A DNA stretch of 58,212 nt, filler included, from Stramenopiles sp. TOSAG23-6 (taxonomy: Eukaryota), in the NCBI GenBank assembly GCA_900128565.1. It is 8 parts of 8 records of this genome, joined end to end, with 100 filler letters (N's around TTAATTAATTAA, not from the genome) between each part and the next. Parts side by side here need not be neighbours in the genome. Positions count along the whole stretch, not along the records: positions 14,612 to 21,814 come from LT636595.1; 7 more parts are not named here. One strand, 5' to 3'. Within the stretch, counting starts at the first letter, position 1; every line of letters begins with the position of its first letter. The notes beneath the pieces are model-generated. The model made no database searches. It saw only the letters and a list, made by a program, of their open reading frames with translations, and was not told the origin of the DNA. Of this stretch, positions 3,799 to 39,400 are shown in pieces. The position numbers and the translations under genes were made by a program.

Positions 3799-4434
3799 AA
3801 TTGTGTTTGAATAATGATTAGAACACATCTGACAAAACAAATTGAGTAATGAAAAACATGGATGAACAAATGAACAAATGAACAAATGAACAAAATAATA
3901 TGAGCATTCATGAATCATTATTACATGAACTTTTTTAAATTAAAGAACATTTTAATTACTGTTATTTTATACAACGTAAAAAACAATAATAAATTTATTA
4001 CTGATTTTGATCATTTGCACTATTACAATATTTCAAATACAATCGACAGAAAATAGACAAACCATAGCTTAATTTATTCTGAAAATGTAGAATGTCANTT
4101 AGCTCTTGATTAATTTGCACGCGTTTCGAGATAACTACAACTATTGATGAGGTAGAGAGTAAAATATATGAAAATTTGTATTAAAGTCTGCAGGTTTGTG
4201 CCGTTTATTATTTTTTTNGANGNAAAGAATCGAGAANGACANCATGNANCTGTTAAAAAAAAATACAGCCTACTACTACAGGTACCATACGTACAAAGTA
4301 GGTATATATAGGGTATTACCACACGACACAAACCTTTTAATTTCTTGGATTNAAGGATATATTGGAAAGAAAGCACACAGTTGTATATTGTAATGTAATA
4401 GCAGATACATAGTATTTATAAAAGTAAAGTAGAA

Positions 4435-5199: not shown

Positions 5200-5289
5200 A
5201 TTATAGAGTATTTTTAGCATACAATTATTTTTTGAATCATAATAAATTGTTACAGTCCNTTTATTATTATANACTTTATACAAATACCA

Positions 5290-7005
5290 TTATACTCTTA
5301 CTTTCCATACTTTACCTTGAGTCAAACCATAGTTAGAGTCACCTACAGATTTTGGTAGATCANATGAATCCAATTCTTCGAGCCAATCATGAGGATTAAG
5401 AAATTGTCTTTGTGGGTCTCCGACTATAACNAGTGGCTTACCAGGTAACTGTGCTATTTTNGTCAGGAANGATCTCACTAAGAAGGAAAGATTTTCTTCA
5501 TATGCAACATCACCTGCAAGAACGACACCGCCTGTAGTCATCTTTTGTTCAGTCATTGTGTTTATTATACCTAAAGCAGAGAATAAATTATCATTTTTGT
5601 TGTCTTTTTTTACATTTTGTTTTTGTAAAAAATTATACTTTGTTAATGAGAATGATGGACTTAATACCTTAATTTTTGATGTATCATTTTTGTCTGCATT
5701 ACATTGTACATTATCAGATTCATAATTTGTACTATTCATAAATATGTTACAATTTGAATCAACATCAAAATTTGAATCAAAATTCAATTTGTAATTTGAT
5801 TCTATAGCAAGTATACTATANGGATCTATATCATTACATAATACATGTCGCGCACCACATTGATGAGCACATAAACCTGCTATTCCACAACCAGCNGCAA
5901 AATCTAAAACNAANTGATTTTTGAACATTTGTGGATTTTTTTTTATATATTGAGCAATAGCAAATGAACCTGGCCAAACAAAGCCCCAATATGGATCAGA
6001 AAAAGGTAAATGATCAATATTTGTTGCAGTATATAAAGGAGTATTTGGTGTAATAAGATGAAGTTTCAGATTACAAATAGAAGTGACTTCAGTATTTTCA
6101 GTGATTATTTCATATCTTTTGTTGAATGCTTTGATAGTTTCAATATTTGTTTGTTTTTTTATAGTTGGATTTTGTTTTNCTTGCTTATTATCAGAATAGA
6201 CACTACTCAAAGAGCTCAATGAACGATGATGATCCAGATGATATTTTGATGTTTTACAACTGATATTTGTTGTACTTGACTGTAGTGTTGGTTTCAATAC
6301 TGAAGATATTTGTACATGTAAAACTGTACCAGAAATAGAAATTTTAGATTGTATACATTTTTTCTCACTTAATTGTGTAGTGATGTGTCCCGCTTGAGTA
6401 TCATCACAACAAAGCATCAAACAATCACCTCTCTCAAGATCAGTAGTCTGCCCTTTATAGTTATTTTTAATTTGCACTTGTNCGGCAAGAGCGAAAAGAA
6501 TATTTATTTTAGATTTATTTGGTTCAACTGTAAAGACACAACTTTCAAGTTTTTGCACAGTGGCAGAGCCATATTCTNGATGAACCATACAATTCAAAAC
6601 ACGACTTGATTGACCTATTGTACTCGTTGTGTTGTCGTCACCAGAAAAGTAAAAAGGTNGACCCAATTTCAACTNAGTATATGTTTCTGATTCACCGATA
6701 GCAGANAGTGACACTTCACCACCAGTAAGAAGAGTAATTATACGCTCATAACCTGGAAGACTACTAAATGGAACCCCTGGAGGTTCTAATGACGCAATCG
6801 ATATTCGCCAATCAAAATTATTATGAGCTTCTGTAGAAAGACTATTTCTATACACAGCAACTTCATGAGTTGTTCCGAGACCATTCTTCCAAGGTTTTTT
6901 AATAAAGTCTTTCTGCCTCAAAATATATCCTTTGTGAAAACGTGATGAAAAATAACGTGAGCGCATATAAATAGAATTTATGATATTTACATTATAATGT
7001 TGCAT
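5290..7005 (-). CDS. HutD/Ves-like cupin fused to an ETFB-lysine-methyltransferase (METTL20)-like class I methyltransferase
   Basis: N-terminal PWKNGLGTTHEVA, FDWRISIA, FSSLPGYERIITLL (HutD); C-terminal PYWGFVWPGS, VLDFxAGCGI, LAGDVAYE, VIVGDPQR. Confidence 0.8.
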   Translation of the reverse strand: MQHYNVNIINSIYMRSRYFSSRFHKGYILRQKDFIKKPWKNGLGTTHEVAVYRNSLSTEAHNNFDWRISIASLEPPGVPFSSLPGYERIITLLTGGEVSXSAIGESETYTXLKLGXPFYFSGDDNTTSTIGQSSRVLNCMVHXEYGSATVQKLESCVFTVEPNKSKINILFALAXQVQIKNNYKGQTTDLERGDCLMLCCDDTQAGHITTQLSEKKCIQSKISISGTVLHVQISSVLKPTLQSSTTNISCKTSKYHLDHHRSLSSLSSVYSDNKQXKQNPTIKKQTNIETIKAFNKRYEIITENTEVTSICNLKLHLITPNTPLYTATNIDHLPFSDPYWGFVWPGSFAIAQYIKKNPQMFKNXXVLDFXAGCGIAGLCAHQCGARHVLCNDIDXYSILAIESNYKLNFDSNFDVDSNCNIFMNSTNYESDNVQCNADKNDTSKIKVLSPSFSLTKYNFLQKQNVKKDNKNDNLFSALGIINTMTEQKMTTGGVVLAGDVAYEENLSFLVRXFLXKIAQLPGKPXVIVGDPQRQFLNPHDWLEELDSXDLPKSVGDSNYGLTQGKVWKVRV

Positions 7006-7208: not shown

Positions 7209-7308
7209 NNNNNNNNNNNNNNNNNNNNNNNNNNNNNNNNNNNNNNNNNNNNTTAATTAATTAANNNNNNNNNNNNNNNNNNNNNNNNNNNNNNNNNNNN
7301 NNNNNNNN
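7209..7308. other. Artificial contig spacer (N-TTAATTAATTAA-N)
   Basis: 100-nt all-frame-stop linker repeated identically seven times. Confidence 0.97.
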
Positions 7309-7363
7309 AGGTACGAAATTTCGTATGAAAAAAAAATAAATTAGAAATTCATATAAAACATAC
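7309..7363 (-). other. Family intron, 5' half (contig breaks in the branch-point motif)
   Basis: CTA CAA|GTATGT...TTTTCATACGAAATTTCGTACCT then contig end. Confidence 0.75.
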
Positions 7364-8639
7364 TTGTAGTAGGCATAAAAACAATATACCTACAAGCCTA
7401 CAGTATTGCCAAATATTGACATTCAATGTAGCATGAGTAGTATGTACAAAAATTTCATTAAATACATCATATCCAAGAGGTTTCCAAAAACTTAAAGTGA
7501 ATAAAAACGGCCCAATTAAACAAATATGAGTGATATATTTTGATAATTTTGAATTTGTCGATATTTGAATTCGTTTTTCTTCACTTTGACAAATAGTTGA
7601 AGGTATCAATATTGAAACGTAAGTCCTGGCAAAACGAAATGCAAAGAGAACAGTTACAAAAGACCACATTGAACATAGTAGAGAGACTGTAATAATGTAT
7701 TTTGCAAAAATATTTCAAAAACAATTTATTAGGTACAAAATTTCGTACGAAAACAAAATTCTAATTTGAAAAAAAATAAAACATACATGACATGCCATTT
7801 CAACGTTTCAGTATCGCTCAAATTTTCATGAGTTTTACTTTGTACCATGTATTGTGAAAAAAATGAGAAATTCGAAATTGGTGAAAAAATAGTACGTACG
7901 AAATTTTCTATGAAAAAAAAAATGTAGATAAAACATTTTGTAGGAAAAAAACCTACATTGATGAATTATTCAGAAAGCCATTTATCGCATATAAACTATT
8001 ATGTATATGTCTAGATAGGTCACTGGCGACGTAAAGCAAATTAAATTCGAGAAGATTCGCTGGGGCCACAGCAGATGCAAAAGAAAAGATAAAACCAAAA
8101 CATCCTGCAAAACTACACAAATAAAGGTTTCCTCTCTTTCCACTAAAAATAGGCAAAGAAAGTCTAAGGATAAGATATACACAGTAAACGATGAGAAAGA
8201 ATACAATGAGTATGAATGATTTGCCGTCCCCCTTAATAGTAAAAACATTGTGCAAAATACCGGAAAATAAGGCACACAATAACGTGACAGGGACAAGGTC
8301 AAATAGCAACTGATATTCATCTGAAAAAAATAGTCCATCGACTGTATTGGCATAAATACCTTTACGTTTGTCAAATTTGTAAAGATAGCTTGAATTTTCA
8401 CGAAGCAATTCCGCAACTCTGACAGGCAGTATGCTTTCTATTAGACGTTGCTTTTCGCCAATCGCTTTTTCTCTCTTGTGCACTGGTGGTAACATTTTCT
8501 CTAACTGAGCAGCTGATGGTGGCAAATAAAAACGTAATCCTTGTAAAAGCCAACTGGATAAAGAGAACACTGAAGAGACTTTTTGAAAAATCACCATTGT
8601 AACCGCGAATATAATTAATTCAGGAGGAAATAATGCCAT
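7364..8639 (-). CDS. TMEM161: TMEM161-family membrane protein, 3' partial; exons 8639..7957, 7846..7787, 7694..7364
   Basis: N-terminus MALFPPELIIFAVTMVIFQKVSSVFSLSSWLLQGLRFYLPPS and FFSDEYQLLFD resemble TMEM161; two GT-AT introns join three open exons. Confidence 0.75.
7695..7786 (-). other. Non-canonical GT-AT intron (92 nt, phase 2)
   Basis: GTC AT|GTATGT...TTTTCGTACGAAATTTTGTACCTAAT...GCAAAATACAT|T ATT ACA, in frame with ORF 7349..7669. Confidence 0.85.
7847..7956 (-). other. Non-canonical GT-AT intron (110 nt, phase 2)
   Basis: TCA AT|GTAGGT...CATAGAAAATTTCGTACGTAC...TTCACAATACAT|G GTA CAA, followed by an open 60-nt exon. Confidence 0.8.
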
Positions 8640-14511: not shown

Positions 14512-14611
14512 NNNNNNNNNNNNNNNNNNNNNNNNNNNNNNNNNNNNNNNNNNNNTTAATTAATTAANNNNNNNNNNNNNNNNNNNNNNNNNNNNNNNNN
14601 NNNNNNNNNNN
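14512..14611. other. Artificial contig spacer
   Basis: N-TTAATTAATTAA-N. Confidence 0.97.
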
Positions 14612-14662
14612 CGAAATTTTGTACCTAACGATTTTTTTTTGAAATATTTTTCCAAAATACAT
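14612..14662 (+). other. Family intron, 3' half ending CAT
   Basis: CGAAATTTTGTACCTAACGATTTTTTTTTGAAATATTTTTCCAAAATACAT|. Confidence 0.8.
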
Positions 14663-15071: not shown

Positions 15072-15208
15072 ACTTCTTACATTATTGGGGAATAAAATAG
15101 GAATAGAGTCATATGTGAAAAAAATATGAAAGCTTTTATATAATACATTATAAATTATATGGCTTTTTTTTAGTTGTTTTATTTCTTTTTGTTATTTTTT
15201 TAATGATA

Positions 15209-16087
15209 TCACACATAAAGCATTCTATTATTATCTCGTCTCTTGTTAGGTGTTTCGGACAGGATATTTGAAAAATTCAAAGTCATTTCATCATCAATGG
15301 ATTCATCGGTGGCACTATTATAGTCTTTATAGCCTATGTTATATTCAGTTGAATTATCATGTACTTTCTCAAGTGTCCTCGGATTAAAGTTAGCAGGGTT
15401 AGGGTTATTTACTTTTGTCGAAGGGTTAGGGTTGCTTTGGTTTCTTATATAGAACGTTTTAACTATTTGTTCAAGAACCTCAATTCGTTTATCTTTTATC
15501 TTGAGTAGTTTATTCAATAGTTCTATTTGATTATTATACGCTTTCATTTCAGAGTTTTTTATGTACTGTAAAAATATATGTCAAATTAGAAATTTGTTAG
15601 GTATAAAGTGTAGTACAAAAAAAAAAGTTCGAAATTGATTAGGGTTAGGGTTAACATACATAGAAAGTAATTCACGAGAGTTAGATATGACAGCTTCCTT
15701 TTCTACTATAAGTTCATTATTTGCGTCTCCCAATGCGTTTAATTCAACTACCTTACGCAATAAATTGTGAGTTTCAAAACGTGGATCATTAAGCAGAGAC
15801 AAATTCAGTTCACTCTGAATAAGTTCGATTTGTGTCTGCAGAGATTTAAAATTCTTTTTGCCTATTGGACGTTTTCGCCATTTTTTACTCTTCTGCAATT
15901 CTTTAGATGCCATGTTTGCGTTGTAGCTTATTTGCGCGTGTAGACCAATATACTCAGCCTTTTTCGCACTAATATATGGATTACTTAGTCGTGTTTTCAA
16001 TTTTCTGAGTTGTTTTACGTCTTCAAAAGTCGATCGCACAATCGTTTGTAGTTCTAAAGTTTTGTTCTTTATCTGCATTGACGACAT
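15209..16087 (-). CDS. Hypothetical coiled-coil protein; exons 16087..15660 and 15560..15209
   Basis: Two ORFs joined in frame (ELLS-I-KNSEMKAYNNQ) by removing 15561..15659. Confidence 0.7.
15561..15659 (-). other. Non-canonical GT-AT intron (99 nt, phase 2) containing (AACCCT)2
   Basis: TCT AT|GTATGTTAACCCTAACCCTAA...ATACCTAAC...TTTTTACAGTACAT|A AAA AAC; using the CAG 5 nt upstream gives ATT ACA TAA (stop). Confidence 0.8.
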
Positions 16088-16407
16088 TATTTTCCAGGAG
16101 GTTAGAACATAAGAGTATTGTGTATATAGAAGTTATTTTATATCATTGTTGTTGAAGTCTCTCAGAGAACTTTCATAATTTTATTGATGAACCTGATCTG
16201 ATCCTAACTTTTATACCGTTTTTTTCGAAAAAAAAAACGAAAGAAAAAAACGTTTCAACATCAAAAAATCAAGGATTATTTGACTTGTATCATACTACTA
16301 CTAGTTACAATCATGTCTTAGTTAGGTAAAAAATGTTTCCACTATACTGAAAAGTATTGCAATACACATTAAAGATTATTTCTGGATACTAGCATATTAG
16401 TCTAGGA

Positions 16408-18798
16408 ATGGACGAGGGGTGGTTATTTTCTGGATATTTGGATAAAAGAACGTCGGGTATTCGAAAAAAGTGGATTCAAAGATTCTTTGTGTTGAAGCAT
16501 GACGTGGTACCGACAGTTTCGTCACCTAAAAAACAAAAAAAATTGAAACCACCAGAAAAGAGTGTAATACGGGGTCGAAATGATCACTTACAGCTGCAGT
16601 GGTTCCGTGGCGCTCATGAATCTCACAGTGGATCTAATCCTAAAGGATCATTTTTCTTATGTAAGGACACTACAATAGTTGAATCTGTTGAGCTGAGCAA
16701 TGCATCGATATACTCGCGACCGTACTGTTTTGAGATCAATTTTAAGGGAAAAGAGGAGCGAAGACTTATTTTATCTGCTCATACAAAAGATGAACGATAT
16801 CGGTGGATTCAATCTGTACAAAATATTCTTACAAATGTTAATGGGGGTGAACTCCACAAAGCAAAAATGAAGTCAAAAAAACAAGAAAATATAAAAAAAC
16901 AACAAAATATACGTAAAAGATTAAATACTGAAAATGTAAACACGTCCAAAATAGAAAAACAACAAAACAATGATTCTTCTTCTATTCTACTAGACAGTAC
17001 AATACAGGCTTTAGACCCTACACCGGACCATATTCCTAATCCTCTAGAGACAAAGAGCACTACTTCTACAACATCTCTAGATAGCACTATTGCAACCGAA
17101 AAAGGTCAACAATCACCACAGACCAAATCAATTTTGTCTGTTGAAACCAAAACTGAATGTACCAAATCAATTTTGTCTGTTGAAACCAAAACTGAATGTA
17201 CTGGTAGTAATGAACAAGTCATCCATCCTCTATATACAATAAATGAAAAAATTTTGTGTTTTTATAAAAAGAGATGGTATGATGGAATCATTAAACAATT
17301 CAAATGTGTACATTCAAATTTTACTACCATGAAGGCTAATTATCGATGGTGTAGTGCAAAAGATGGTGGCTGGACAAGATCCCCAATGTATATTAAAAAA
17401 TGGATATTTTGTGTAGAAATTGTCAATTTTGTGGGTACATCCAAAAGTTTTACAATAGAAAATGTGGAGGAAGGTTCTCTACGTAAAACTCAAAATGACA
17501 TTTTCCATGGTAGTCAAATACATAAATTCACAAAATCTATACTAAGGACAATAACATCAACAAATACTGATACGAATAAGAACACGAAATCTCGTGAAGA
17601 GCCTATACTAAGGACAAATACTGATACCCCCTCCCCTACGAGTAAGAACACGAAACCTTTTGAAGAACATGAGACAATACAAGCTAACAAACTATCTAAA
17701 ATACAATCGATAACGAGAAGCGAAAATCCAATATATAAAAAAGGGAATTCTGTACGATTATTAGACTATACTACTACTACATACGGCATTGTTCATTCTA
17801 TAGTGTATCGACAGCAATCAACGAAAACACCTCATAAAAAAACACCATATAACAATATTTCTTATAATGTTGAAATCTTTACGAATAATCTTTCTAATGA
17901 ATTATATACAAAACAAAATAGCACAATAGTAACCTACATTCATGAAAAGCGAATAATGCCAGTAGACATATACTACGTGAATGATATTATTTTAGGTAAT
18001 TATAGAGGCGATGATGAATTTTACCTTGGCAAAGTTGTTCAAAAACATAATTACGCTAGATACCCTTTTAATACTAAATACGATATTCAATATGAAGATG
18101 GTGTCATTGAAAAATATGTGTCATTAGATAAAATACTATATTTTGGAGAGTTACACAAAGGTGATACAGTACAAGCATATTTACCAAAGCTACTTCAGTG
18201 TGACGACCAGGGCTGGTGTGATGCAACTATAAAACATATATACGAAGGGAATATATATGACGTGACTGTGAAGAATAATATAGCAAATATGCAAAGTGTA
18301 GTTGTAACTACTAGTGCCAGGTACATACGTACAAATAGTTTCAAATTAATGCTTCAAAGATCTAAACAATATACCCAGAAACAAAAAAATATCAAAAATG
18401 AAAAATATCAAAAAAAACAATCGACACAGAAAAATAGTAAATGTAACATTGAAAGTTCCATTTTTTGTATTAGTGATAAAGTTTGCGTAATAAATCCGAA
18501 TAAAAACAACAAGTCAAATAATGAGAAAAGACGTGGAACAATATATAAAGTCCATAGAAATGATAAAGAAGAATTTCATGTGAACAACCCGTGTTTTACC
18601 ATATTGCTTGCAAATGGGAAAATATTGACCAATGTTCCAATATTATGGATAAAACATGATGCTAACGATGTTGATGATGATGCTGATGTTGATGATGTTG
18701 ATGATGTTGATGATGTTGATGATGAGGATATATACAATAAACTATTGAATGAGGAAGAGATCGGCTACAAGAGATGGTTGGAGTTCAATATGAAATAA
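16408..18798 (+). CDS. PH-domain protein with C-terminal Tudor-like repeats
   Basis: SGYLDKRTSGIRKKWIQRFFVL...RPYCFEI...LILSAHTKDERYRWIQSVQ (PH); GNYRGDDEFYLGKV...YDIQYEDGVIEKYV (Tudor-like). Confidence 0.8.
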   Translation: MDEGWLFSGYLDKRTSGIRKKWIQRFFVLKHDVVPTVSSPKKQKKLKPPEKSVIRGRNDHLQLQWFRGAHESHSGSNPKGSFFLCKDTTIVESVELSNASIYSRPYCFEINFKGKEERRLILSAHTKDERYRWIQSVQNILTNVNGGELHKAKMKSKKQENIKKQQNIRKRLNTENVNTSKIEKQQNNDSSSILLDSTIQALDPTPDHIPNPLETKSTTSTTSLDSTIATEKGQQSPQTKSILSVETKTECTKSILSVETKTECTGSNEQVIHPLYTINEKILCFYKKRWYDGIIKQFKCVHSNFTTMKANYRWCSAKDGGWTRSPMYIKKWIFCVEIVNFVGTSKSFTIENVEEGSLRKTQNDIFHGSQIHKFTKSILRTITSTNTDTNKNTKSREEPILRTNTDTPSPTSKNTKPFEEHETIQANKLSKIQSITRSENPIYKKGNSVRLLDYTTTTYGIVHSIVYRQQSTKTPHKKTPYNNISYNVEIFTNNLSNELYTKQNSTIVTYIHEKRIMPVDIYYVNDIILGNYRGDDEFYLGKVVQKHNYARYPFNTKYDIQYEDGVIEKYVSLDKILYFGELHKGDTVQAYLPKLLQCDDQGWCDATIKHIYEGNIYDVTVKNNIANMQSVVVTTSARYIRTNSFKLMLQRSKQYTQKQKNIKNEKYQKKQSTQKNSKCNIESSIFCISDKVCVINPNKNNKSNNEKRRGTIYKVHRNDKEEFHVNNPCFTILLANGKILTNVPILWIKHDANDVDDDADVDDVDDVDDVDDEDIYNKLLNEEEIGYKRWLEFNMK

Positions 18799-18977
18799 TA
18801 AATTGCAAATTCAATTCAATTTTTTTTTTTAAATCAGTTAAAATACCGTTAAAATACCGTTATAATTCATACGTACCTTAAAAACTACTACTACATCTAT
18901 CTAGCTAGCCTTTTGTTTATCTTTCAATGCACAAATGTTACAACATAAATTAGGATGGACTTCTAATAAATGAAATC

Positions 18978-20501
18978 ATGAAGTCATACAAATGGCTACT
19001 ACTAGTTCTATTCCTATTGCACGGAATAACTATAGATTGTAGTCATAATAGTCGTGAGAAACATCCTCCAAAGCCTTTAACCTGGATTGAAGTTACTCAA
19101 TTTGAGGTCATAAGAATACTTCTTGCAGTAAAATATGTGACATTTAGATGGGGAAGAAGTCACATTCGCCATGGTTCCTCAATATATTCTGGTAGTAATG
19201 GACTCGCTCTTTTGCAAACCGTTAATTCAAAAGTTTACTTAGGAGATGATATAGTCGACAGTGACGAAACTAACGATGAACCTTGGGATGAGATATGTCC
19301 AAGTTATATTTTTGGACTTCAAATGCGTGTGCTGAAACAAAAAAGACAACTATCCGATGCGACGAAGAAAGTGAATACAGCTATCGAAAATCTCAATGTA
19401 TTTCATAGAAAAAATAACCCTAAGGATGTAGCAACAGCTCAAAAAATGTTAGTTGAAGCTTCCGAAGCCGCATTTACCGCTCAACTTGAGGTAGCAGAAG
19501 CTACAGAACTTTTCGAGAAAGAAAAAACCGTGGAATTAATGTATGCCATGAATACAGCTCAACAGCGCACAAAAACATTTATCGAAGCTGAAGTTCAAGC
19601 TAGAGCCAATGCAATGATTGCTGCTAAAGCCACCCTTGCAGCACAAACCGCAGGATTTGACGAAACTATAGCTAGTGCTAAACTTAAAGAACTCGAAACA
19701 ATAAAAATTCACGCCTCGGCGACAAAACAAGCTGTAAAATCCAAGGAAGTCGCTTTTGAATCTAAGAAAAAATTCAACCAATCTTGTGAGGCAGTAGCTG
19801 ATTTAGAAATGTCGAATGCAAAAGAAGCTGTCAAAGTAGCAGAAAATTCGAATCGATTTTATACAAAGAAAGCTATGGAAATTAGTGAGAAAGCCACACT
19901 AACGCTGCAAAAGGTAAATAAAACAGTAGCTAAGCTGAAAGTAACTTGCAAGGATGCATATGAAGCTATAATCAAATCATACGCAGATTACAAATCGGCT
20001 GTCAAAGCTAGAAAAAAAGCTGATGAATCTGCTAAAGCTAAAAAAAAAGCGGAAGATGATGCCAAAGATGCAAATGGAGTCGCTAGAGCTACAAAAAAGG
20101 CTAAAGACGATGCAAAAAATGCAGATATCGCTGAAACAAAAGCAAAGATAAGCGCTGAAGCTGAAATTGCAGCAATTAAAAAGAGACAAGAGTTTTGTAA
20201 TTTTGAAGTGAAGAGCGAGCCAACGTTTAAAATGCATTATCAAATTTTGAAGTTATTCTCATTGCTAAGAAGTGTGAAATCTCAAATCGAAACTGATGGG
20301 AGTTGTAGTCAAGATGAAACGAGTCGGTCTTTCTTATTTGACTATGGAAGTTCAATATTTTTGATGTCTACAGTAGATGGAAAGGTCTTTATAGAAGATG
20401 AGAATGTTGGTACTTTAAATAGTGACGAGAATGACAATAGTAGTCAAAATAATAGTAGACAAAATAGTGATCAAAATAATGCTCTTCTACGATTACAATG
20501 A
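18978..20501 (+). CDS. Secreted Ala/Lys-rich coiled-coil protein, function unknown
   Basis: Signal-peptide-like N-terminus MKSYKWLLLVLFLLHGITIDC and a long helical Ala/Lys/Glu region. Confidence 0.65.
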   Translation: MKSYKWLLLVLFLLHGITIDCSHNSREKHPPKPLTWIEVTQFEVIRILLAVKYVTFRWGRSHIRHGSSIYSGSNGLALLQTVNSKVYLGDDIVDSDETNDEPWDEICPSYIFGLQMRVLKQKRQLSDATKKVNTAIENLNVFHRKNNPKDVATAQKMLVEASEAAFTAQLEVAEATELFEKEKTVELMYAMNTAQQRTKTFIEAEVQARANAMIAAKATLAAQTAGFDETIASAKLKELETIKIHASATKQAVKSKEVAFESKKKFNQSCEAVADLEMSNAKEAVKVAENSNRFYTKKAMEISEKATLTLQKVNKTVAKLKVTCKDAYEAIIKSYADYKSAVKARKKADESAKAKKKAEDDAKDANGVARATKKAKDDAKNADIAETKAKISAEAEIAAIKKRQEFCNFEVKSEPTFKMHYQILKLFSLLRSVKSQIETDGSCSQDETSRSFLFDYGSSIFLMSTVDGKVFIEDENVGTLNSDENDNSSQNNSRQNSDQNNALLRLQ

Positions 20502-20624
20502 AAGAATACAAAAAAGCAAAAACAAAAAAACAATTGCTACAAAATATTTTACATGAATACATCAACATTCAAAACCAAATTATTAAGTACAACGTTTATT
20601 GTGAAAACAAAAAAAAATTAAATA

Positions 20625-21760
20625 TTATTTATTTCTATTTTTCCATTGTTCACACAAAAAACGTTGTTCCAATTTTGTGTCTCTACCATGAAAATGTTTT
20701 CCTCCATCTGACTGATGCTTCAAAATTTCTCTTAATTCATCACAAATCTCCAGAACTGATTTTTTCATAGCTTTAGCATCATTCTGATTACAGTCTAGTA
20801 TAGTTTGTCTAGTTATAGCTCTGAACTCTTGCAAAATTTCTAAAAATTTATTATCCTGTACATCATTCATAATAGAATGATTTGTAGTATTGGTTTCGGA
20901 ATGAACCAATTTATCAAACATATTTGGATCAATAATCTGTATGCCACCAATGCAACGCTCTGATATATATTGTAAAACAATAATTCAAAAATTTGATTCG
21001 TTTTGTTAGGTACAGAATTTTCTATAAAAAAAAAATGAAAATAAAATGAAAACATACAAACCCATAACAGATAATATTGAATGTATCTGTGCTCTTGCTG
21101 CCAAAAGTAATTCTATATTTAAATCTATATTTGAGGCATTTGGCAAATTTGAAACTGTTTTTTCCGTACTTAATTTCGTATCTAACGAATTTCGAATTTC
21201 TTCATGACATTTTATATATTTATGTGTAGTTTTTATTGTATTTCCTAGTATCGACAAAACCTTTGGTGTATCGAAATCGTTTCGAAATGCTTCTTTGATT
21301 TCATTATTTGATGTTGTAATTATCGAAAACAACATATTATCATTGGAACAAAATTGTCTGTTTTGTGGACCATTTCGTTTTTTCTGTTCAAGATGAGCTG
21401 ACTTTATTGTTTCTTCAGTAATATTTAAAAATGTTGTCATCTTTTTTAAAATAATTGAAGCTTCTTTCATACTTTCTATAGAGTAGTGTACATCACTACT
21501 GTATTTATGTATTTTGGAAAAATATTTCAAAAAAAATTCTAAAAAATTTGTTAGGTACAAAATGTCGTACGAAAAATAAATTCGATTTTTTTGTTTGAAA
21601 AAAAAATAAAACATACATGTTGTAAACACCATATGCGAAATGTATCTGCACAAATTTCTTTTGTCTCCGAATCTGAAAATTTGTGTTTTGATTTTAATAA
21701 GTTCTGAATAGTGATAAAATTTTTTAAAGACTTTGACATTTTCATTCCTTTAATATGAAC
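20625..21760 (-). CDS. CARS: Cysteinyl-tRNA synthetase, C-terminal part (5' partial); exons 21760..21617, 21506..21058, 20964..20625
   Basis: VHIKGMKMSKSLKNFITI (KMSKS), spliced FRIWCLQH|KYSSDVHYS..SM.EA, DFDTPKVL, ILSVMGL, FR..TR, ICDELR. Confidence 0.88.
20965..21057 (-). other. Non-canonical GT-AT intron (93 nt, ends TAT, phase 2)
   Basis: GGT TT|GTATGT...AATTCTGTACCTAAC...TTTTACAATATAT|A TCA GAG. Confidence 0.8.
21507..21616 (-). other. Non-canonical GT-AT intron (110 nt, phase 0)
   Basis: CAA CAT|GTATGT...TTTTCGTACGACATTTTGTACCTAAC...CCAAAATACAT|AAA TAC restores the CysRS motif. Confidence 0.9.
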
Positions 21761-21814
21761 ATGTATTTTGGAAAAATATTTCAAAAAACAATTTCAATTT
21801 GTTAGGTACAAAAT
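21761..21814 (-). other. Family intron, 3' half ending CAT
   Basis: ATTTTGTACCTAAC...GAAATATTTTTCCAAAATACAT|GTT CAT ATT AAA GGA ATG AAA ATG TCA AAG. Confidence 0.85.
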
Positions 21815-21914
21815 NNNNNNNNNNNNNNNNNNNNNNNNNNNNNNNNNNNNNNNNNNNNTTAATTAATTAANNNNNNNNNNNNNNNNNNNNNNNNNNNNNN
21901 NNNNNNNNNNNNNN
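21815..21914. other. Artificial contig spacer
   Basis: N-TTAATTAATTAA-N. Confidence 0.97.
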
Positions 21915-21980
21915 TTTCGTACGAAATTTTGTACCTAACAATTTTTAGTTTTTTTTTTGAAATATTTTTCCAAAATACAT
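21915..21980 (+). other. Family intron, 3' half ending CAT
   Basis: TTTCGTACGAAATTTTGTACCTAAC...GAAATATTTTTCCAAAATACAT|GGC GGT. Confidence 0.8.
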
Positions 21981-24299
21981 GGCGGTAGTCGAAACAAAAT
22001 AACTTACAACAACGCGCGAGGAGAAGATGGCTCAACAATGCTTCGTATTTTAAATACGAAAGCATGCAATCATGGTACGATGTATGCTGCATTAGTACAT
22101 CGGATTGATTCATTTCGTCATTCGTCTTTTCGTGACAACGATGGAATTTCAATTAAAAATGATTATTTTTTTGATTTTTCAATACGTTGTATTGGCGGCC
22201 GTGGCGAAACATATTCGTCTCACAATGCCTATAATTTCACCAAAACAATTCAAAGAATGGAAACCTCTGGCGTACCCGTGATGCTTGCAGCGCAAAGTCC
22301 AGTCGAACATGAAAAAAAAGATCTGACAATCCTGGGTCTGCATTTATCAATATCTTTGACAACAACTCGTAGGTTTTTTTTTTCAAATTTAAAAAAATGT
22401 TTTTTGTACGAAATTTTGTACCTAACATTTTTTTTTTTTTATTTTTTTTTTCACAATACATGCTACGAAAATCTTGGAGATGACAAAGATGTTGACATGC
22501 AAAATGTAATTCGATACGGCATGGTATCGATATCGCAAAAGCCAACGCGTAATGTCCAAACGGATCAGATTGAAAAAATGAAAAACAAGAATGTGACAAA
22601 TTTAATTGTTTTCGATGGTGAAAATACCGGGAAAATTGAAGGATCTATTGGTATGAATGTTTTTAAGGTTGCCTTGTGTGCATCTCTTGTTCGCGTCGCT
22701 TTAAAGAAAAAAATAGATAGAAAACATAGAAAACGACAAGATTATTCTCTTAATGATAGTGAAAATGATGTAAAGGATTTTGCAAAATTGGCGATGGTAT
22801 CATTAGGCTTGAATGAGAATGAATCTGTGGAAGTTCCAACAAAACTTAAAGTACGTTTTAAANTTTCCATTTTTTTTTTATTTTATTTTTTTCATAGAAA
22901 ATTCTGTACCTAACGATTTTTTTATTTGATATTTTTTTTTTTACATGACGAACATCAGAAACGTATCAATGCCAAAACATTAACTTCAATCCCAAGTGCC
23001 CATTTGGAAATAAAGGCAGGCTATTTTGCATCTACTGCGTTAGGGGCGACGATTCATTATGATAAACAAAATCAAGAAAATGGTTATATAAAAAAACCAT
23101 TTCCATCGTTATGTCGTGTTGATTCGATTGAATACAATTTGATCGAAAAAATCAGCAGGGAATTTACTAACCCTAAAGGTAAAGTAAAAGCGGCAATGCT
23201 CATCCGATTAGTTGGATTGGAGCCATTCTATTTGGAAAATGATGATTTGGAAAGTGATGATTTGGAAAATGATGATTTGGAAAATGATGATTTGGAAATT
23301 AATGATTGGGAAGTTGGCGTCAAAAACATTGTAAAAAAAATCCAAAATGTTGGTCAATTTCAATGTCATCGTGCAGCGCATGATGTTCGGTATTTTTCTC
23401 AAATCCGATTATATCAGGATAATAAAGAAAAATGTGAAAATGTGATCAGTCATATAATTCGTGTTGTAGATGATGAGACAATCGATAATCTGCAATCGAT
23501 CGAATCAATCAATGATTCTGTGGACAATATCTGTGAAAACTTGGAAATTTGTGGTAATAAAGTAAATAATTTAGAGAAGTACCACATAGCTGCCGATTTG
23601 GCAAAAGTTTTTGGTCTGAAATATGATCGACCTGATAAAGTCTATACGCAAACTTTTCGTGCTAATCGTGGTGAAGGACGAGGTTTTGCTGCAATATCTG
23701 CAACGCTTGCTCGGTATTATGAGAATGATATGAATGGTTTCCCAGGTTCTTCTCTTGGTCTTGCAGGCGAGCGAACTATGTTAAAAGATACTGCCGAGGC
23801 ATTGAAAAGTGTATGTGATGTAGCTTTGGCAAAAAATAAAAATGGTAATGAAAATCATAATGATACTGATGATACTGATGATACTGATGATGATATTAAT
23901 AAAGACAATCCAACAAATCGTGATTATATTGAGAAAGCAATAGAATCACATTTATTGATTGTTGACGATTTTATGGATATTACTGAATATTTGTGTGCTG
24001 TATGTTATGGATTATTTAATGCTATATGTACAATGCATAGATTAACCAAAAATGATAATGACGATGATGATGAAAATGACGATGATGATGAAAATGATGA
24101 TGAAAATGATGATGATGATAATACCAAATTTCTTCCTTTCTGTAAAAAGAATCGGATGATTCATAAAATTATTTCCTTTGATTTTGCAAAAACATATTAC
24201 GATAAATACTATAAAGTTCGTAAAGAAGTTCAAAAGCGTAGTCGTGAAAGTCCTAATGTTGTTGAAAATGGTTCAAAACGTGCTCGTATAAATAGGTGA
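21981..24299 (+). CDS. Hypothetical protein with acidic tracts, 5' partial; exons 21981..22368, 22462..22850, 22947..24299
   Basis: Long open exons joined in frame by two family introns; no recognised domain. Confidence 0.7.
22369..22461 (+). other. Non-canonical GT-AT intron (93 nt, phase 1, stop-free)
   Basis: ACT C|GTAGGT...GTACGAAATTTTGTACCTAAC...TTCACAATACAT|GC TAC; read-through gives an implausible poly-Phe peptide. Confidence 0.8.
22851..22946 (+). other. Non-canonical GT-AT intron (96 nt, phase 0)
   Basis: CTT AAA|GTACGT...CATAGAAAATTCTGTACCTAAC...TTTTACAT|GAC GAA; contains an in-frame stop. Confidence 0.82.
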
Positions 24300-24588
24300 A
24301 ACATTTCTTTTACAATGACATTATGTCATTTTAATCTTTTAATAAAAGATTTTATTTTCATTTACACATTTTTATATTTTTTTAAATTCTAAATTTGGTA
24401 TTATTTTTTATACATGGCTCAAATAAAATTGAGAAAATCATGCTACATTTTTATATGCACCACGTCATTTACTTTTATCAGTAAAATTTTATAAATATTA
24501 TTTTGTAAATTTCCATGTGTATAGTGTAGTATGATACACTTTTATCAATACAACGCGTCATAGTTACTATCAATTTGAAATTTTTTTT

Positions 24589-26092
24589 CATACGAAATTT
24601 CGTATGTAAAAAAAANTTNCAAAAAAAAANGTAANTTTTTTTTTCGAACGAAATTAAAAAAAATAAATATTTCTTTTGTAATGATACACAAACATAAAGT
24701 CACCAAAATGTTAAACATTAAACAAGAAATTTGAAAGAAATCAATATAATGTTTATTAAAAGGTGGACTGTATCTATGTTAGGGTTAGGGTTATTTTTTC
24801 TTATCAAAAATTCTGAAAAAATAAATACAAAGATTTCGTGTAATATTCAAAAAGAATATCGATTTGAAAATTATTTTTTTAAAAAAATAAAAATTTTATG
24901 TTTTTCTGACAATGAACCAATGCTGTTCTATATCCATGCTCAGTATTGATAATAAGCCACATTGTGTCAGTTAAAAATTTTCAACATTTAACGGCTAGAA
25001 AATTCGTTGTCATTGCATCAAGATGAATAATAATATACCTAGGATTAGTTTTTTTTTTTTTTTCATACCTAATTTTGTACCTAACGATTTTTTTTTTTCT
25101 ACGGTTGTTAGGGTTAGGGTTTGATTTTTTTTTTTTTTTTTTTAGGGTTAGGATTTGATTTTTGATACGAAACGATTTGTTTTTTCAAATAAATTTCACA
25201 ATACACATCATCATACGCTATTAGTGTATCAATATTCCCTTCAATGATGCATTTTTGGTTTGTGTGCTGATCATAAAATGTTATTTGTTTAGTATTTGTT
25301 TTTTTTTCATACGCAATGTTGTACCTAACGATTTTTTTTAAAATATGTACAAAATTCTCTATGAAAAAAAACTAACTAGGATATTTCTATTTCAAAGATG
25401 ATGAATTACATCGGTATAGATAAAAAGAAATTTATTGAACAAAACTTCAAGATTGTATAAATAACAACCGTATCTTCAAATTGAAAAAAAAAAAAAAAAA
25501 ATTATGTATTAACTAGGGTTAGGGTTGCTATTCTTTGTCTAATTATAATCAATTGAATTAAAATGGAACAATATACATCATCTATCAAATAAATTTCATT
25601 CATGATATAATCAATCAAATTACTCTTTATACCAATAAAACGACGGAAAAGCATCAATTCAAAGCATTTCAAAAAAAATTATTTTCATACGAAATTTCGT
25701 ACCTAACAAGAAAAAAAAAAATTATCTAACAATTTTTTTTTTTTTAGGGTTAGGGTTAGGAAAATTTGTAACGATTTGTTTTTGATATAAATTTCACAAT
25801 ACACATGATAGAAACTAAGAATGTATCTCAATTATTTTTACAAAATATTATTTTTTTGTAATGTCTTAGGATTGTAATGTATTAGGAAAATGTCAAATTT
25901 TTTTTTTTTTTTTTTTTTGATTTCATACGAAATGTTGTACTTAACGATTTTTGTTTTTTTCGTACGAAATGTTGTACCTAACAATTTTTTTTTTTTTTAG
26001 GGTTAGGGTTAGGAAAAAAAAAAAAAATAATACCATACAAAAACATTTCATTTAACCAATATTTTTTTTTGATTTTTTTTTTCACAATACAT
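24589..26092 (+). repeat. Cluster of intron-family core motifs interleaved with (TTAGGG)2-3 and poly-T
   Basis: Core-motif copies near 24589, 25063, 25308, 25686, 25924 and 25961; TTAGGG tracts near 24779, 25108, 25142, 25514, 25744 and 25997; ends with acceptor TTCACAATACAT at 26092. Confidence 0.65.
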
Positions 26093-26902
26093 GGAATCGT
26101 TTGGCAGAGGGGGGTTGGATTAAAACAATATCAACGGCTTCATCATCAAGTGGAGGGGAAAAAGGAAATCGAATACTTACCACAACAGTAAACCCTAACC
26201 CTAATGATTCTCGAGTTGGAGATAAAAATACATCAAAGTTTGGATGCACTCCATGTGCAGATGAAACTGCCGACTCTAGTCAAAGTCTATTGAAAAAGAA
26301 ATCAATGCGAACCCCTAACCCTAATGATTCGAAATCAACAAATGATCAAAGTATATGGGTGTATCGAGACCCCAAAAAATGTTTAGGTTCCAAACGTAAA
26401 TCAAGTGACTCTTTGAGTAAAGCATTAGCTACGAAAAAAATCGGATCAGGGTTAGGGTTAGGCGAAATTTCTTCTTTAGTAGAAAACCAAGGTTTAAACC
26501 AAGGTTTGGAAAATCAAATACCAACACTTTTCAGACATAGAAGTAACCCAGGACAAAATGTACATATACATCAGAGAGTTCGATCTAGTAGGTTTCCATC
26601 ATAAAATTTCGATTTTTTTTTTGAATTTCAACTTTAATTCTTTTTCTTACGTGCATTTCATACCTAACAAAAATAGTTTTACTAAAAACATATCTTCACA
26701 AACTACATGCAGTATGCCAATTAGACCTGTTTTACAACAAACAATACTAAATACAAACCCTAATCCTAATGCATATCAAAGGCAACACAGGACATCAAGT
26801 GTCTGTAGTCGTGATAGTGAGTGTGCGAGCCCTGGGACAACTGCTCTTGCTTTTATTCTCACAAACATGGCTCAACCTCCAATTCCACCAATGAACATTT
26901 GA
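26093..26902 (+). CDS. Low-complexity hypothetical protein, last two exons (26093..26587, 26709..26902); upstream exons unresolved
   Basis: ORFs 26101..26604 and 26558..26902 are joined in frame by intron 26588..26708. Confidence 0.55.
26588..26708 (+). other. Non-canonical GT-AT intron (121 nt, phase 1)
   Basis: TCT A|GTAGGT...TTTCATACCTAAC...CACAAACTACAT|GC AGT ATG. Confidence 0.72.
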
Positions 26903-29110: not shown

Positions 29111-29210
29111 NNNNNNNNNNNNNNNNNNNNNNNNNNNNNNNNNNNNNNNNNNNNTTAATTAATTAANNNNNNNNNNNNNNNNNNNNNNNNNNNNNNNNNN
29201 NNNNNNNNNN
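29111..29210. other. Artificial contig spacer
   Basis: N-TTAATTAATTAA-N. Confidence 0.97.
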
Positions 29211-36344: not shown

Positions 36345-36397
36345 ATGTATTTTGGAAAAATATTTCAAAAAAAATCGTTAGGTACAAAATTTCGTAC
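36345..36397 (-). other. Family intron, 3' half ending CAT
   Basis: GTACGAAATTTTGTACCTAACGATTTTTTTTGAAATATTTTTCCAAAATACAT|, nearly identical to 14612..14662. Confidence 0.82.
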
Positions 36398-36497
36398 NNN
36401 NNNNNNNNNNNNNNNNNNNNNNNNNNNNNNNNNNNNNNNNNTTAATTAATTAANNNNNNNNNNNNNNNNNNNNNNNNNNNNNNNNNNNNNNNNNNNN
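36398..36497. other. Artificial contig spacer
   Basis: N-TTAATTAATTAA-N. Confidence 0.97.
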
Positions 36498-39400
36498 CAG
36501 AGAGAGCATTGAGTTTGAAGAGTGTCTCTCCCACTAAGCTTTTCAAGTGGAACATACGCGAGTGATGTGGCATCATAACTACTCAGGGGGATATTCGTTG
36601 TAAACTCTTTTTTACCCAAAACTTCATCTTTTAAGAGTATTAAATGTCCAAAGTATGATGAAGGGCAATCACATCGACTCTGTGTGTTATCACCAAGTAT
36701 GAGTGTGTCTCCAGGACATTCAGTAGCAACATAAGAACCTTCTGCACAAAATTCGCTCCCCTTACAAGCAACTTTTACTGCAGAATTAGCACATCTATGA
36801 TTTGCTGGGCATATACTTATTGAAGATACACCTTCTGCACAATATACAGCTAATGTATTTGTCACTCCCGCGGCTGGTTCACAACTTTGTTTTACTCTCG
36901 AGTCAATACAATATGATCCAGCTGAACACTTTTGTGGATTATGAGATCCGGCGGGGCAGAAATAGGCCACTTCCTTTGCATCTGTGATGGGATTTTCAGA
37001 ATCTTTTGGTTCATCAATTTCAGGAAAATCACAATTATATTTGTGTTTGCCATCCTTGCAGTAATACCCAGCAGGACATTTTATAGGTTGGGTCCTCTTT
37101 GGGGGACAATACCATGCAACATCAGCTGATTCCAAATTTACATCATGATTTTGAGAATCCCATATACAAGAATGTTTTGTTGATACAGTTGGACAGTAAT
37201 ACCCCGCTTCGCAACCTGGATTAGTTTTTACAATGGTAGTGACTGTTGGTTCTTCTACAACAAGTTCTGCCATTTGAAAACCAACAGTGACGATCACAGA
37301 TTGAACAATTTTCAATATATTTGCTACACTGAAAGTGTCAGCAGCGTTATTGCCATCATTTGTATTGCCATCATTTGTATTGCCATCATTTGTATTGCCA
37401 TCATTTGCATTCCCATCATTTGTATTCCCATTACTTTCGTCTTTGACATTCGTGGCTATTATTTTAAAATGATGTAATGATTCTGCGCAGGATACATGCA
37501 CACAATCATCTATAAGTGCAGGGCTTTTACACCAGCCAATGAAATCAGCAATCCATTGGTCAACTCCAGTGTCATCACATGCTGCTGCTTCAAGTCTACG
37601 CCGACGACTCGTTAACATTGTTAATGTTGTGGGATATTCCCTACTTTCAATTTCCACAGCCTTCCCTGTTTTCGTTCCTGCCGGACAGTATTCATCCTCA
37701 GAACATGGATCTATCTTTGAAGCGTCACTACACTTAAATCCTTCTGGGCATAATATTACAGATGTCCTAGAAGTTCCTTCTTGGCAATATGGCTGTTTTC
37801 CTGGATATTCAGCAAGTACATTAGGACAATCTGTGGAGTCATCAGAATCACAAGGATGTGGGGAGTCAGCAGAATCACAAGTATATGGAAGATCTGAGTC
37901 ACCAGAATCACAAGGGAATTCATTGTAACCACCATCACAAAAACATCCCGCTGTACACTTTCTTTTGGTACTCTGATCATCTACTAATTTACAAACCCAT
38001 CCCGTGTCTTGTGATTCGAGGAATGTCATTTGTTCATCTAATGGTTGATTCGAAATCCAAACGCACCTTTTCTTTTCTGTTGACTTGGGACAATAAGATC
38101 CATTCGGACACAACTGGGGTGATTTTGATCCTTCTTCGCAATAATATTTCCCATCATCACATTTTACAGGTTGATCGGTTATAATCGCACAGTAATGCCC
38201 TACAAGACACAGTACAGCCCTCAGTGATCCTGCTGGACAATAGTAGCCTAAATTCTGATCATCATCATTATGAAGAGCGCAATCTGCTATCTCCCTCGAT
38301 GTTGCACACATTTTTCCTTCGGGGCAATCTTCTTCTTTCGCTGTTCCAAGTGGGCAATAACTTCCAGGATCACATTGAATTGCTTTAAATGAACCTTCTG
38401 GACAATGGTAGCCAATTGGACACTCTTCCTTTTGAGCTGCGGTTTTACATAAATACCCTGCTGGACAAGGTACGCTTTGTTTTGATCCTAATCCGCAAAA
38501 ATCTCCGTCAACACAATCTGTTGGCTGATCACTTATGGTAGGACATTTTTTTCCGGCCGGACACTCCACTGCCTTCGTTGATCTTACCGGACAGTAATAG
38601 CCTTTGGATCCAGCATCGCTAGGATAAGCACAATCGTTTTTTTCACTTGGTGTCGGACACATATAATTTGCTGGACAGTCGTCTTGAACTGCACTTTCAA
38701 CTGGACAATAGCTACCGGGAAGACATGTTTCTTCTTTAAATGAATATTGTGGACAATAGAAACCACTTCTACATGTTGTCTGAGTACTCGGTGTTGGACA
38801 GTAAGATCCCGCACTGCATGGAATTTTGTTTTTTGTCCCTGCAGGACAGTAATACGCAGACTGGGCATTTTCGCATGGATTTCTAGTCTCTGGATTGGGA
38901 CATTCGTAATTAACGTCACAAATAGCGTCAACCAGGGTATTGAATACATTCCCTAGGGGACAATAAATTGCTTTACCATCCACTGGAACACACTTTTCAC
39001 GTGTTGTTCCGTATAAGTCACCAATTTTAGGACAATAATGCCCTGCAGGACATTTATTTTTCGATTTACTTCCTTCTGGGCAATAATAACGATATTCTAC
39101 ACAATCTTCGCCTTCACAACCCTGTTCCTTACTTGGAACACACGCCTCACGATGTTGACTTGTTTTGCAAAAGTAACCCGCATCGCAAAGATCGCAGTCA
39201 GCATTTGAATCACCAGTGTCAAACTTTCCGGGGCCACACGTTTCACAATAGCCGCAATCTACCAGTTTAGAATGATCTGTCATATCGACACTGCATTTCT
39301 CCACAGTGGCTTCGTTTGGCACACACGCTAAAAATAATTTCCATTCACATCCTTGAGTATCAGTACAATCACTTGTTGTCAATTTTTGCCCGCATGACAC

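Follow-up and report, generated by a model that had tools for sequence, protein, structure and literature searches.

Few signals in eukaryotic genes are as constant as the AG at the 3' end of introns, and the euglenids count among the lineages that have departed from it on a large scale, with both intron ends changed or with no fixed rule at all. Large-scale departures of the same kind, which again change both ends or follow no fixed rule, have been described in Amoebophrya (PMC7789003) and in some tunicates (PMC13326754). In this report we describe a locus at which the 3' end alone may have been released: a 110-nt segment (positions 21507 to 21616, minus strand; the 'focal intron') within a gene for cysteinyl-tRNA synthetase (CysRS), found in 58,212 bases of joined contigs from Stramenopiles sp. 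TOSAG23-6 (GCA_900128565.1), a stretch called 'the window' throughout. Exact removal of this segment brings two conserved blocks of the synthetase together, and the most economical account of it is a GT-AT intron that belongs to a transposon-like family.

Several described systems invite comparison (statements about each of them are drawn from the consulted part of the paper cited). Families of mobile introns ('introners') are known from Micromonas, Aureococcus, dinoflagellates and others, with canonical ends, and only rare GC and GA 5' sites are mentioned in that part of the account (PMC9860276). The introns of the window resemble them in being near-identical, short and situated in unrelated genes of a marine protist, with apparent inverted ends and a short flanking repeat, restoration of the reading frame and an AT-rich composition relative to the exons; they differ in that the 3' end is AT in nearly all copies, and in an apparent target duplication of 2 nt (AT, once TA) as opposed to 3-9 bp (PMC9860276). 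With Amoebophrya, also a marine protist, they share repeated intron families, a direct repeat at the boundary, complementary ends and large-scale use of non-GT-AG ends. However, no dinucleotide pair dominates in Amoebophrya and its U1 small nuclear RNA (snRNA) went undetected, whereas the introns of the window keep a GTATGT start and a branch box, GT-AT ends fit all of them, and their inverted repeats are short (6 nt perfect) and have been lost from old copies (PMC7789003).

Some tunicates have abandoned GT/AG and escaped both rules, a change linked to altered U2AF and to snRNA modification; the window would be like them in a lineage-wide use of non-AG 3' ends, and is unlike them in keeping the 5' GT (PMC13326754). 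Single GT-AT introns, both of the U2 type (DGCR2) and of the U12 type, are on record in animals (PMC1557818), and in Physarum GT-AT accounts for 17% of non-canonical minor introns, a class for which the source may have been a transposon that bore inverted ends and duplicated TA (10.1101/2020.10.12.336362). In those organisms GT-AT introns are isolated cases or a minority class, whereas AT is the commonest end in the window, where the 5' motif is without a TATCC core (PMC1557818; 10.1101/2020.10.12.336362). A literature search that left supplements aside returned nothing on a stramenopile with a family of GT-AT introns, nor on any family or lineage in which GT-AT prevails, and the consulted part of a single-cell genomics paper on stramenopiles (PMC5778133) contains nothing on splice-site types.

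The interrupted CysRS gene

The visible part of the gene is arranged as follows, in the order of transcription.

21761 to 21814, minus strand: 3' part of the upstream CysRS intron, same family, ending CCAAAATACAT, cut by the contig end
21617 to 21760, minus strand: CysRS exon A, 48 codons, VHIKGMKMSKSLKNFITI...FRIWCLQH, carrying KMSKS (tRNA-synt_1e, PDB, protein P0001)
21617 to 21620, minus strand: ACAT at the end of exon A, the same as the last four intron bases (21507-21510), a shared suffix of 4
21507 to 21616, minus strand: focal intron, 110 nt, GTATGTTTT...TGTACCTAACAA...CCAAAATACAT
21611 to 21616, minus strand: 5' splice-site hexamer GTATGT, a U2-type, GTRNGT-like sequence
21548 to 21559, minus strand: branch-site-like box TGTACCTAACAA, an exact match to the motif, its second-to-last A 45 nt from the first exon base
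21539 to 21540, minus strand: first AG past the box (TTTTAG), use of which leads to a stop after three codons (first exon base 21538)
21058 to 21506, minus strand: CysRS exon B, KYSSDVHYS...ILSVMG plus 2 nt (tblastn with P0001, alignment, weak DALR_2 match at 15.9 bits)
20965 to 21057, minus strand: third visible CysRS intron, 93 nt, a diverged family member GTATGTTTT...TGTACCTAACAA...ACAATATAT, GT-AT, for which an AT-AC register is impossible
20628 to 20964, minus strand: last CysRS exon, ..SERCIGG...EQWKNRNK, followed by a stop at 20625-20627

The KMSKS loop and colinear C-terminal domains are both present, and the three exons, once joined, reach 165.3 bits against a CysRS profile without a stop or frameshift over 310 codons. 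Exon A by itself scores 23.5 bits with Pfam tRNA-synt_1e, under the 27-bit cut-off for a fragment, and matches CysRS chains in the PDB at E 1.8e-4. It is 60% identical to P0001 (580 aa, EukProt), the sole close relative found; identity to this closest relative is 26% in the C-terminal domain. The KMSKS loop and the helices that follow it align without indels against 16 homologs, and stramenopiles predominate among the relatives of P0001 that bear a name (oomycetes, pelagophytes, diatoms, brown algae and a raphidophyte). When exon A was searched against longer proteins in protein collections it found P0001 only, and exon B found no match; a scan of Joint Genome Institute (JGI) metagenome contigs with exon B peptide patterns yielded no relative.

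In a tblastn search with P0001, residues 291-352 fall on 21793-21617 and residues 352-578 on 21509-20628, while residues 1-290, the N-terminal catalytic half with its HIGH motif and zinc site, have no match in the window. It follows that the contig end interrupts the gene within the upstream intron and leaves about 310 C-terminal codons, matching P0001 residues 291-578; a preliminary description of this DNA has to be amended to the effect that the gene is not whole in the window. Beyond the linker at 21815-21914 lies an unlinked contig with a different, plus-strand gene, whose first visible exon likewise follows a family copy.

The same description had singled out the locus as lying within an essential, conserved gene. 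The gene is indeed a CysRS, but the argument from essentiality is weakened by the nature of its relative: P0001 and the reading frame of the window stop at the same place, both without the C-terminal extension that is present in 8 of the 16 aligned homologs, and the gene may be a short-form CysRS paralog, one of two.

The junction between exons A and B

The donor G lies at 21616 (caacat/GTATGTTTT, a slash marking the boundary) and the last intron base, a T, at 21507 (CCAAAATACAT/aaatacag), 110 nt in all, and the coordinates and sequence first reported for the segment are confirmed. Its excision gives ADTFRIWCLQH/KYSSDVHYSIESMKEA, colinear with CysRS and free of indels in an alignment with P0001 and 15 further CysRS proteins. 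In two alignments with P0001 the FRIWCLQH column directly adjoins the KYSSDVHYS column; P0001 itself reads ...FRIWCMQYKYSSDVHYS... across the junction, and the other 15 homologs have no indel there. For a quantitative comparison, candidate joins were generated by script from window coordinates and scored against a CysRS profile built from 16 homologs and against a second version that leaves out P0001 (15 homologs).

110 nt and 93 nt removed: 165.3 bits with 16 homologs, 160.9 bits with P0001 left out
Third intron taken as GTTTGT...CAG: 156.2 bits with 16 homologs, 151.8 bits with P0001 left out
Only in-frame GT-AG pair for the focal intron: 131.9 bits with 16 homologs, 128.1 bits with P0001 left out
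First AG after the branch box: 59.1 bits with 16 homologs, 57.4 bits with P0001 left out
Unspliced: 54.1 bits with 16 homologs, 53.4 bits with P0001 left out

An exhaustive boundary scan, in which 75 ends of exon A were combined with 85 starts of exon B, produced 1136 distinct stop-free, in-frame products, and the 110-nt removal has the top score among them (160.9 bits with P0001 left out, the best GC-AG product reaching 137.1). Alignment of the spliced translation, which had been proposed as a check, thus requires the junction exactly where it was first placed. Because exon A and the intron both end in ACAT, this top product arises equally from five registers (GT-AT, TG-CA, AT-AC, CA-TA and AC-AT). 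As a result, the claim of GT-AT ends stands as regards the segment removed and the failure of AG acceptors, but the exact cut is ambiguous, and the choice of GT-AT among the five would be a matter of economy.

None of the seven AGs listed from the branch box to 21460 (within 91 nt of the box) is in frame with the GTATGT donor; an eighth, at 21440, is in frame and lies 111 nt past the branch A. Use of the TTTTAG acceptor gives AAT TTT TTT TGA, precisely as predicted, with the first stop at codon 52 of that model. The segment thus combines a GTRNGT-like 5' site, a predicted branch-site consensus and a pyrimidine-rich tract, all features of U2-type introns, with the lack of a terminal AG, and its GC content is 0.18, against 0.29 and 0.24 in the flanking 100 nt.

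All three of the acceptors visible in the gene (21761, 21507 and 20965) end in AT, as had been noted. The first is fixed by a conserved H-L/V-H-I before KMSKS, exon A opening with a V that aligns to the L of HLHI. The last is fixed by a conserved Gly-hydrophobic pair after ILSxx, and the third intron is in frame only with its ATAT end. A canonical version of that intron (GTTTGT donor at 21061, CAG ending at 20960) was rejected: it deletes the conserved Gly-Leu and scores 9.1 bits lower.

A family of putative introns ending in AT

The box TGTACCTAACAA, close to the yeast-type TACTAAC, occurs 19 times in the window with at most one mismatch, against 0.33 occurrences expected, and a profile of the core and 3' part likewise identifies 19 copies at E<1e-3. 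The family is laid out as a GTATGT start, the box, a T-rich tract and an ATACAT end, with the box 34-46 nt from the end; variant 5' hexamers are GTAGGT, GTACGT, GTAAAT and GTATTT. Aligned copies share four parts: GTATGTTTTATTTTTTTT(C)AAA; the palindromic TTTCGTACGAAA; TTTTGTACCTAAC(A/G)A; and TTTGAAATATTTTTCCAAAATACAT. The second of these is a perfect 12-nt palindrome just upstream of the branch box (21548-21575, and in other copies), at or near which several contigs break.

Copies sit as introns in unrelated genes, as expected of an introner or miniature inverted-repeat transposable element family, and they have a GC content of 0.15-0.25, where the 100 nt to either side have 0.22-0.47. The young copies differ little from one another. 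All copies that can be assigned to a host open reading frame (ORF) are in the sense orientation, with the exception of one at 45067-45185 (assignments were made by eye from ORF lists). Six of the 14 internal contig ends fall inside a family copy, which means that the family is frequent enough to break the assembly. The copies outside the CysRS gene, together with one further intron, are listed here.

2408 to 2504, plus strand: intron of a Tudor/SET gene, AT/GTATGT...ATAATACAT/; three AGs listed within 102 nt of the box, none in frame
7309 to 7363, minus strand: 5' part of a copy at a contig start, GTATGTTTTAT...CGTACCT
7695 to 7786, minus strand: intron of a TMEM161-like gene, CAT/GTATGT...AAAATACAT/; an ACAG 8 nt beyond is out of frame
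7847 to 7956, minus strand: diverged intron of the same TMEM161-like gene, AAT/GTAGGT...CACAATACAT/
14612 to 14662, plus strand: 3' part of a copy at a contig start (family profile and alignment)
15561 to 15659, minus strand: intron with (CCCTAA) repeats past its 5' end, ending ACAGTACAT/; ACAT in frame, ACAG out of frame
21915 to 21980, plus strand: 3' part of a copy at the start of the next, unlinked contig, in an intron of a different plus-strand gene
22369 to 22461, plus strand: diverged intron, GTAGGT...CACAATACAT/; an in-frame AG also 18 nt on
22851 to 22946, plus strand: diverged intron, GTACGT...TTTTTACAT/; an in-frame CAG also 12 nt on
26588 to 26708, plus strand: diverged intron, GTAGGT...AAACTACAT/; three AGs listed, none in frame
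36345 to 36397, minus strand: 3' part of a copy at a contig end (family profile and alignment)
43645 to 43683, minus strand: 3' part of a copy at a contig end, ending AAAATAAAT
44474 to 44582, plus strand: young intron, TAT/GTATGT...CCAAAATACAT/; an in-frame ACAG 6 nt on
44678 to 44847, plus strand: diverged intron, TAT/GTATTT...TTATAACAT/; two donors overlap, and the second gives the in-frame join
45067 to 45185, plus strand: antisense family copy in a plus-strand gene, GTATGTT...AACATAC, with TA on both sides and an internal tandem duplication
46109 to 46200, minus strand: family member with a canonical end, GTAAAT...CGTACCTAACAA...GAAAATACAG/, in frame
46809 to 46925, minus strand: GT-AG intron of a BT1-family gene, GTACGT...AAATAAAG/, missed by the family profile and by the motif search
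57659 to 57769, plus strand: intron with (TTAGGG)2 past its 5' end, ending AAAATAAAT/

In all ten of the ten copies that could be so tested, the ACAT end preserves the frame set by a GTANGT or GTATTT donor and by long ORFs on both sides, the chance for each being 1/3 (first exon bases 2505, 7846, 7694, 15560, 21506, 22462, 22947, 26709, 44583 and 44848). Two more copies are in frame with other AT ends, ATAT (exon from 20964) and AAAT (exon from 57770). By comparison, the next AG past the ACAT is in frame in four of the first nine (22480, 22959, 44589 and 7837), which is about the 1/3 rate of chance, and the AGs listed for the copies at 2408, 15659, 21616 and 26588 are all out of frame with the respective donor. 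Four diverged copies without an AT before the donor (at 22369, 22851, 26588 and 21057) are all in frame at the AT end.

The family ends in AT in all but one copy with a defined end, and in this it departs from the canonical GY-AG ends of described introner families. The exception (46200-46109) ends in an in-frame ATACAG at the homologous position, from which it appears that AT and AG ends occupy the same site of the element. Moreover, the intron at 46925-46809 ends in an in-frame AAAG, and an ACAT upstream of that end is followed by an in-frame stop; AG ends therefore also occur in the window. The unknown gene at 21981-22850, read through, had 0 matches among 1.84 billion representative sequences, and its two diverged introns could consequently not be pinned by homology. 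TMEM161 junctions drawn from Pfam coordinates proved too loose to fix a junction and were set aside.

An exonic ACAG lies 6-10 nt past the AT end in 4 of 17 copies, whereas in long ORFs such a motif is present in 3.4% of 12-nt windows (P = 0.002, binomial). The copies concerned, with first exon bases at 7694, 14663, 21506 and 44583, are all young, and the ACAG may reflect a target preference or an aid to splicing.

Telomere-like TTAGGG/CCCTAA repeats occur inside two family introns just past the 5' end (about 15640-15652, minus strand, and about 57667-57680, plus strand). In an ORF-free stretch of 1 kb (25060-26000, plus strand), TTAGGG repeats follow each of at least six degenerate cores of the element. 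A 21-nt intron core had 0 matches in JGI metagenome contigs. What looked like a long terminal inverted repeat spanning the N gap at 21815-21914 was rejected as such, since the gap joins two unlinked contigs that each end in a copy from a different gene.

Transposon-like structure of the copies

The ends of the element are inverted (ATGTAT...ATACAT, 6 nt perfect, with TTTCAAA/TTTGAAA further in), and a direct repeat of 1-4 nt spans the boundary. An AT that matches the terminal AT stands just before the donor in 8 of 14 tabulated introns (AT/GT...AC/AT), a pattern that looks like a 2-nt target duplication around a GTAT...ATAC element. Diverged copies are without both the flanking repeat and the terminal pairing, yet are in frame. 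In predicted folds of seven copies, a 6-bp terminal helix of AUGUAU and AUACAU closes four, with weak z-scores (+0.41 to -2.09 relative to shuffled sequence); an eighth copy, which contains an N, was excluded from the folding. Ciliate internal eliminated sequences are removed without regard to orientation or coding strand; here the copies are sense with one exception.

A proposed mechanism

On the strength of these observations, the 110-nt segment is probably a spliceosomal-type intron from a high-copy, transposon-like ('introner') family, whose flanking exons are joined after the terminal AU. Each copy would bring three signals with it: the GTATGT 5' site, the 12-nt predicted branch-site box TGTACCTAACAA and the T-rich tract. 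An ordinary spliceosome would assemble on the 5' hexamer and branch box, the pre-mRNA would be cut before GTATGT, and the exons would be ligated after the final AU, giving a GT-AT intron by a rule that fits every testable copy. Removal at the level of RNA, by a spliceosome and in this particular register, is what we infer from the sequence as the most economical course.

On a broader proposal our judgement is evenly divided: that in this marine, stramenopile-like lineage exon ligation after a 3'-terminal AU is routine for the main spliceosome, with a yeast-like GUAUGU and a rigid branch box retained, that a miniature transposon which duplicates 2 nt of its target carried the GT-AT class into coding regions across the genome, and that the outcome is a natural, genome-wide relaxation of the 3' AG rule alone.

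A number of points weigh against this account. In the spliceosomes that have been studied, a terminal G is required for the second step, and a lineage that mainly uses U would be unusual. When a fresh insertion has duplicated 2 nt of its target, removal of the element and one duplicate necessarily restores the frame; the frame test on young copies therefore proves little alone, and its value lies mainly in the four diverged copies without the 5' AT. For this reason the preliminary argument, that a housekeeping synthetase is unlikely to be a pseudogene with three frame-preserving insertions, carries only part of its weight: the insertions are in frame, but frame alone is no proof of splicing where the insert is a copy of a transposon-like family. 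The antisense copy lies in a coding region, and to join its long flanking ORFs takes a removal of 121 nt that does not end in ACAT. This removal (the element plus 2 nt) connects the ORF on the upstream side to one of about 200 codons downstream, whereas removal of 117 nt (from GT to ACAT) leads to a tail of 27 codons, and read-through stays open for 39 codons. The weak fold z-scores neither support nor exclude another mechanism. Finally, the spliced form of the protein was sought in protein collections and none was found, and the JGI metagenome scans gave nothing.

Alternative explanations

The alternative that survives best takes the same intron in the AT-AC register (/ATGTATGT...AAAATAC/), removed by either the major or the minor (U12-type) spliceosome, both of which are known to handle AT-AC ends. 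We regard this as unlikely. The ACAT repeat makes its product identical to that of the GT-AT register, and an AT directly precedes the donor in 8 of the 14 tabulated introns. Against it, that register would place the consensus hexamer 2 nt into the intron, and the third CysRS intron (TTT/GTATGT...ATATAT/) and three other diverged copies are impossible as AT-AC and in frame as GT-AT, so that in these four, which lack an AT before the donor, AT-AC is excluded. As regards the minor spliceosome in particular, there is a loose resemblance between the 5' end GTATGTTT and the U12 motif [G/A]TATCCTT, and between the box ACCTAAC and TTCCTT[G/A]AC, and Physarum offers a precedent both for GT-AT among non-canonical U12-type ends (17%) and for a transposon origin with inverted ends and a TA duplication (10.1101/2020.10.12.336362). 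By eye, TACCTAAC agrees with the branch motif TTCCTT[G/A]AC at 6 of 8 positions. Against this, GTATGTTT fails to match [G/A]TATCCTT, the diverged copies carry GTAGGT, GTACGT or GTAAAT rather than TATCC, and the box, at 34-46 nt from the end, lies at the edge of the range quoted for U12 introns (10.1101/2020.10.12.336362). An Rfam scan of the 58-kb window found no snRNA gene.

Removal might instead be guided by the inverted ends and the flanking repeat, either as precise excision from DNA or as the hairpin-guided excision from RNA proposed for Amoebophrya, whose elements combine boundary direct repeats of 3-5 nt with inverted repeats of 8-20 nt (PMC7789003). The paired ATGTAT...ATACAT and TTTCAAA/TTTGAAA, the direct repeat of 1-4 nt and the antisense copy (GTATGTT...AACATAC between TA dinucleotides, where loss of the element and 2 nt joins two long ORFs) are all consistent with such a process. 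Nevertheless it is distinctly unlikely: a strong sense bias is not expected if orientation is irrelevant, the 5' hexamer and branch box are strand-specific and conserved, the fold z-scores are weak, and diverged copies that have lost both the flanking repeat and the terminal pairing stay in frame.

It is very unlikely that the insert is not removed at all, being a recent mobile-element insertion that breaks this copy, or is present in some of the pooled cells, with a working CysRS elsewhere. In its favour, a restored frame is what a new insertion that duplicates its target would give in any case, the young copies are almost the same in sequence, no more than half of the gene can be seen in a fragmentary assembly with many single N letters, and a second CysRS may exist, given that the closest relative is a short form. 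The load of insertions, however, with three in this half of a gene and about 20 in coding regions over 58 kb, nearly all of them sense, is not compatible with unselected, unspliced insertions; furthermore, diverged (old) copies still join intact ORFs, and the CysRS exons are without stops or frameshifts over 310 codons.

Ordinary splicing at other sites, to yield a shorter or altered CysRS, is barely credible: one in-frame GT-AG pair does exist, a correction to the preliminary description (donor 21629, acceptor ending at 21499), and with the GC-AG pair 21636/21539 it gives stop-free products, but these score 32.8 (GT-AG) and 23.8 (GC-AG) bits below the 110-nt product, delete residues (WCLQHKYS in the GT-AG case) that are near-identical between the window and P0001 and conserved in other homologs, and use poor donors (GTGTTT and GCATAT) next to a perfect GTATGT.

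The window and its host genome

The window is a chain of eight separate contigs of 7208 to 7152 nt, sorted by falling size and joined by linkers of the form N44-TTAATTAATTAA-N44; gene order across any linker therefore carries no meaning, and neighbours are not physically linked.

7209-7308, 14512-14611, 21815-21914, 29111-29210, 36398-36497, 43684-43783 and 50961-51060: linkers, N44-TTAATTAATTAA-N44

The genome is AT-rich (GC 0.23-0.41 per 2 kb in the window) and gene-dense, and it uses the standard genetic code, with ORFs of up to 2127 codons. Other genes in the window encode a dynein heavy chain, a giant EF-hand protein, a Tudor/SET protein, Ras, a TMEM161-like protein, a BT1 transporter and a Utp13-like WD40 protein. 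DNA sequencing runs share 92-94% of the sampled words of 15100-24400 and seawater metagenomes share up to 50% (word sharing only), which places the organism in the sea. Three metatranscriptome runs contain 6-9% of the words of the same region, a measure of word share that says nothing about expression or habitat. The best reading of the host, judged by its CysRS relatives, would be a marine stramenopile-like protist.

Single N letters are numerous in the window and densest at 500-7000. At 41393-41395 (minus strand), a lone in-frame TAA separates two long ORFs of the same frame (36446-41392 and 41396-43678, about 2400 codons together) and has nothing intron-like nearby; sequencing error, a nonsense allele and read-through could each account for it. 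Pfam searches with the ORFs on both sides of this TAA, and with those around the antisense copy at 45067-45185, gave nothing useful. At the end of the first contig (about 7150-7208, minus strand), the sequence by eye resembles a tRNA gene of which the contig end has left the 3' half; no tRNA gene was called by ARAGORN, and Rfam and tRNA scans across the window gave no match.

Implications

If the account given above is true, a textbook 5' site and branch box, combined with AT ends in most copies of an expanding family, would isolate the 3'-site step of splicing and would bear on how the second catalytic step selects its site. There would also be practical consequences for annotation: gene callers restricted to canonical introns would break genes here, three times in half of one synthetase gene, and a family of this kind would escape introner surveys whose starting point is annotated GT-AG introns. 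For the biology of the host, the family would add a case of transposon-like intron gain in a heterotrophic marine protist.

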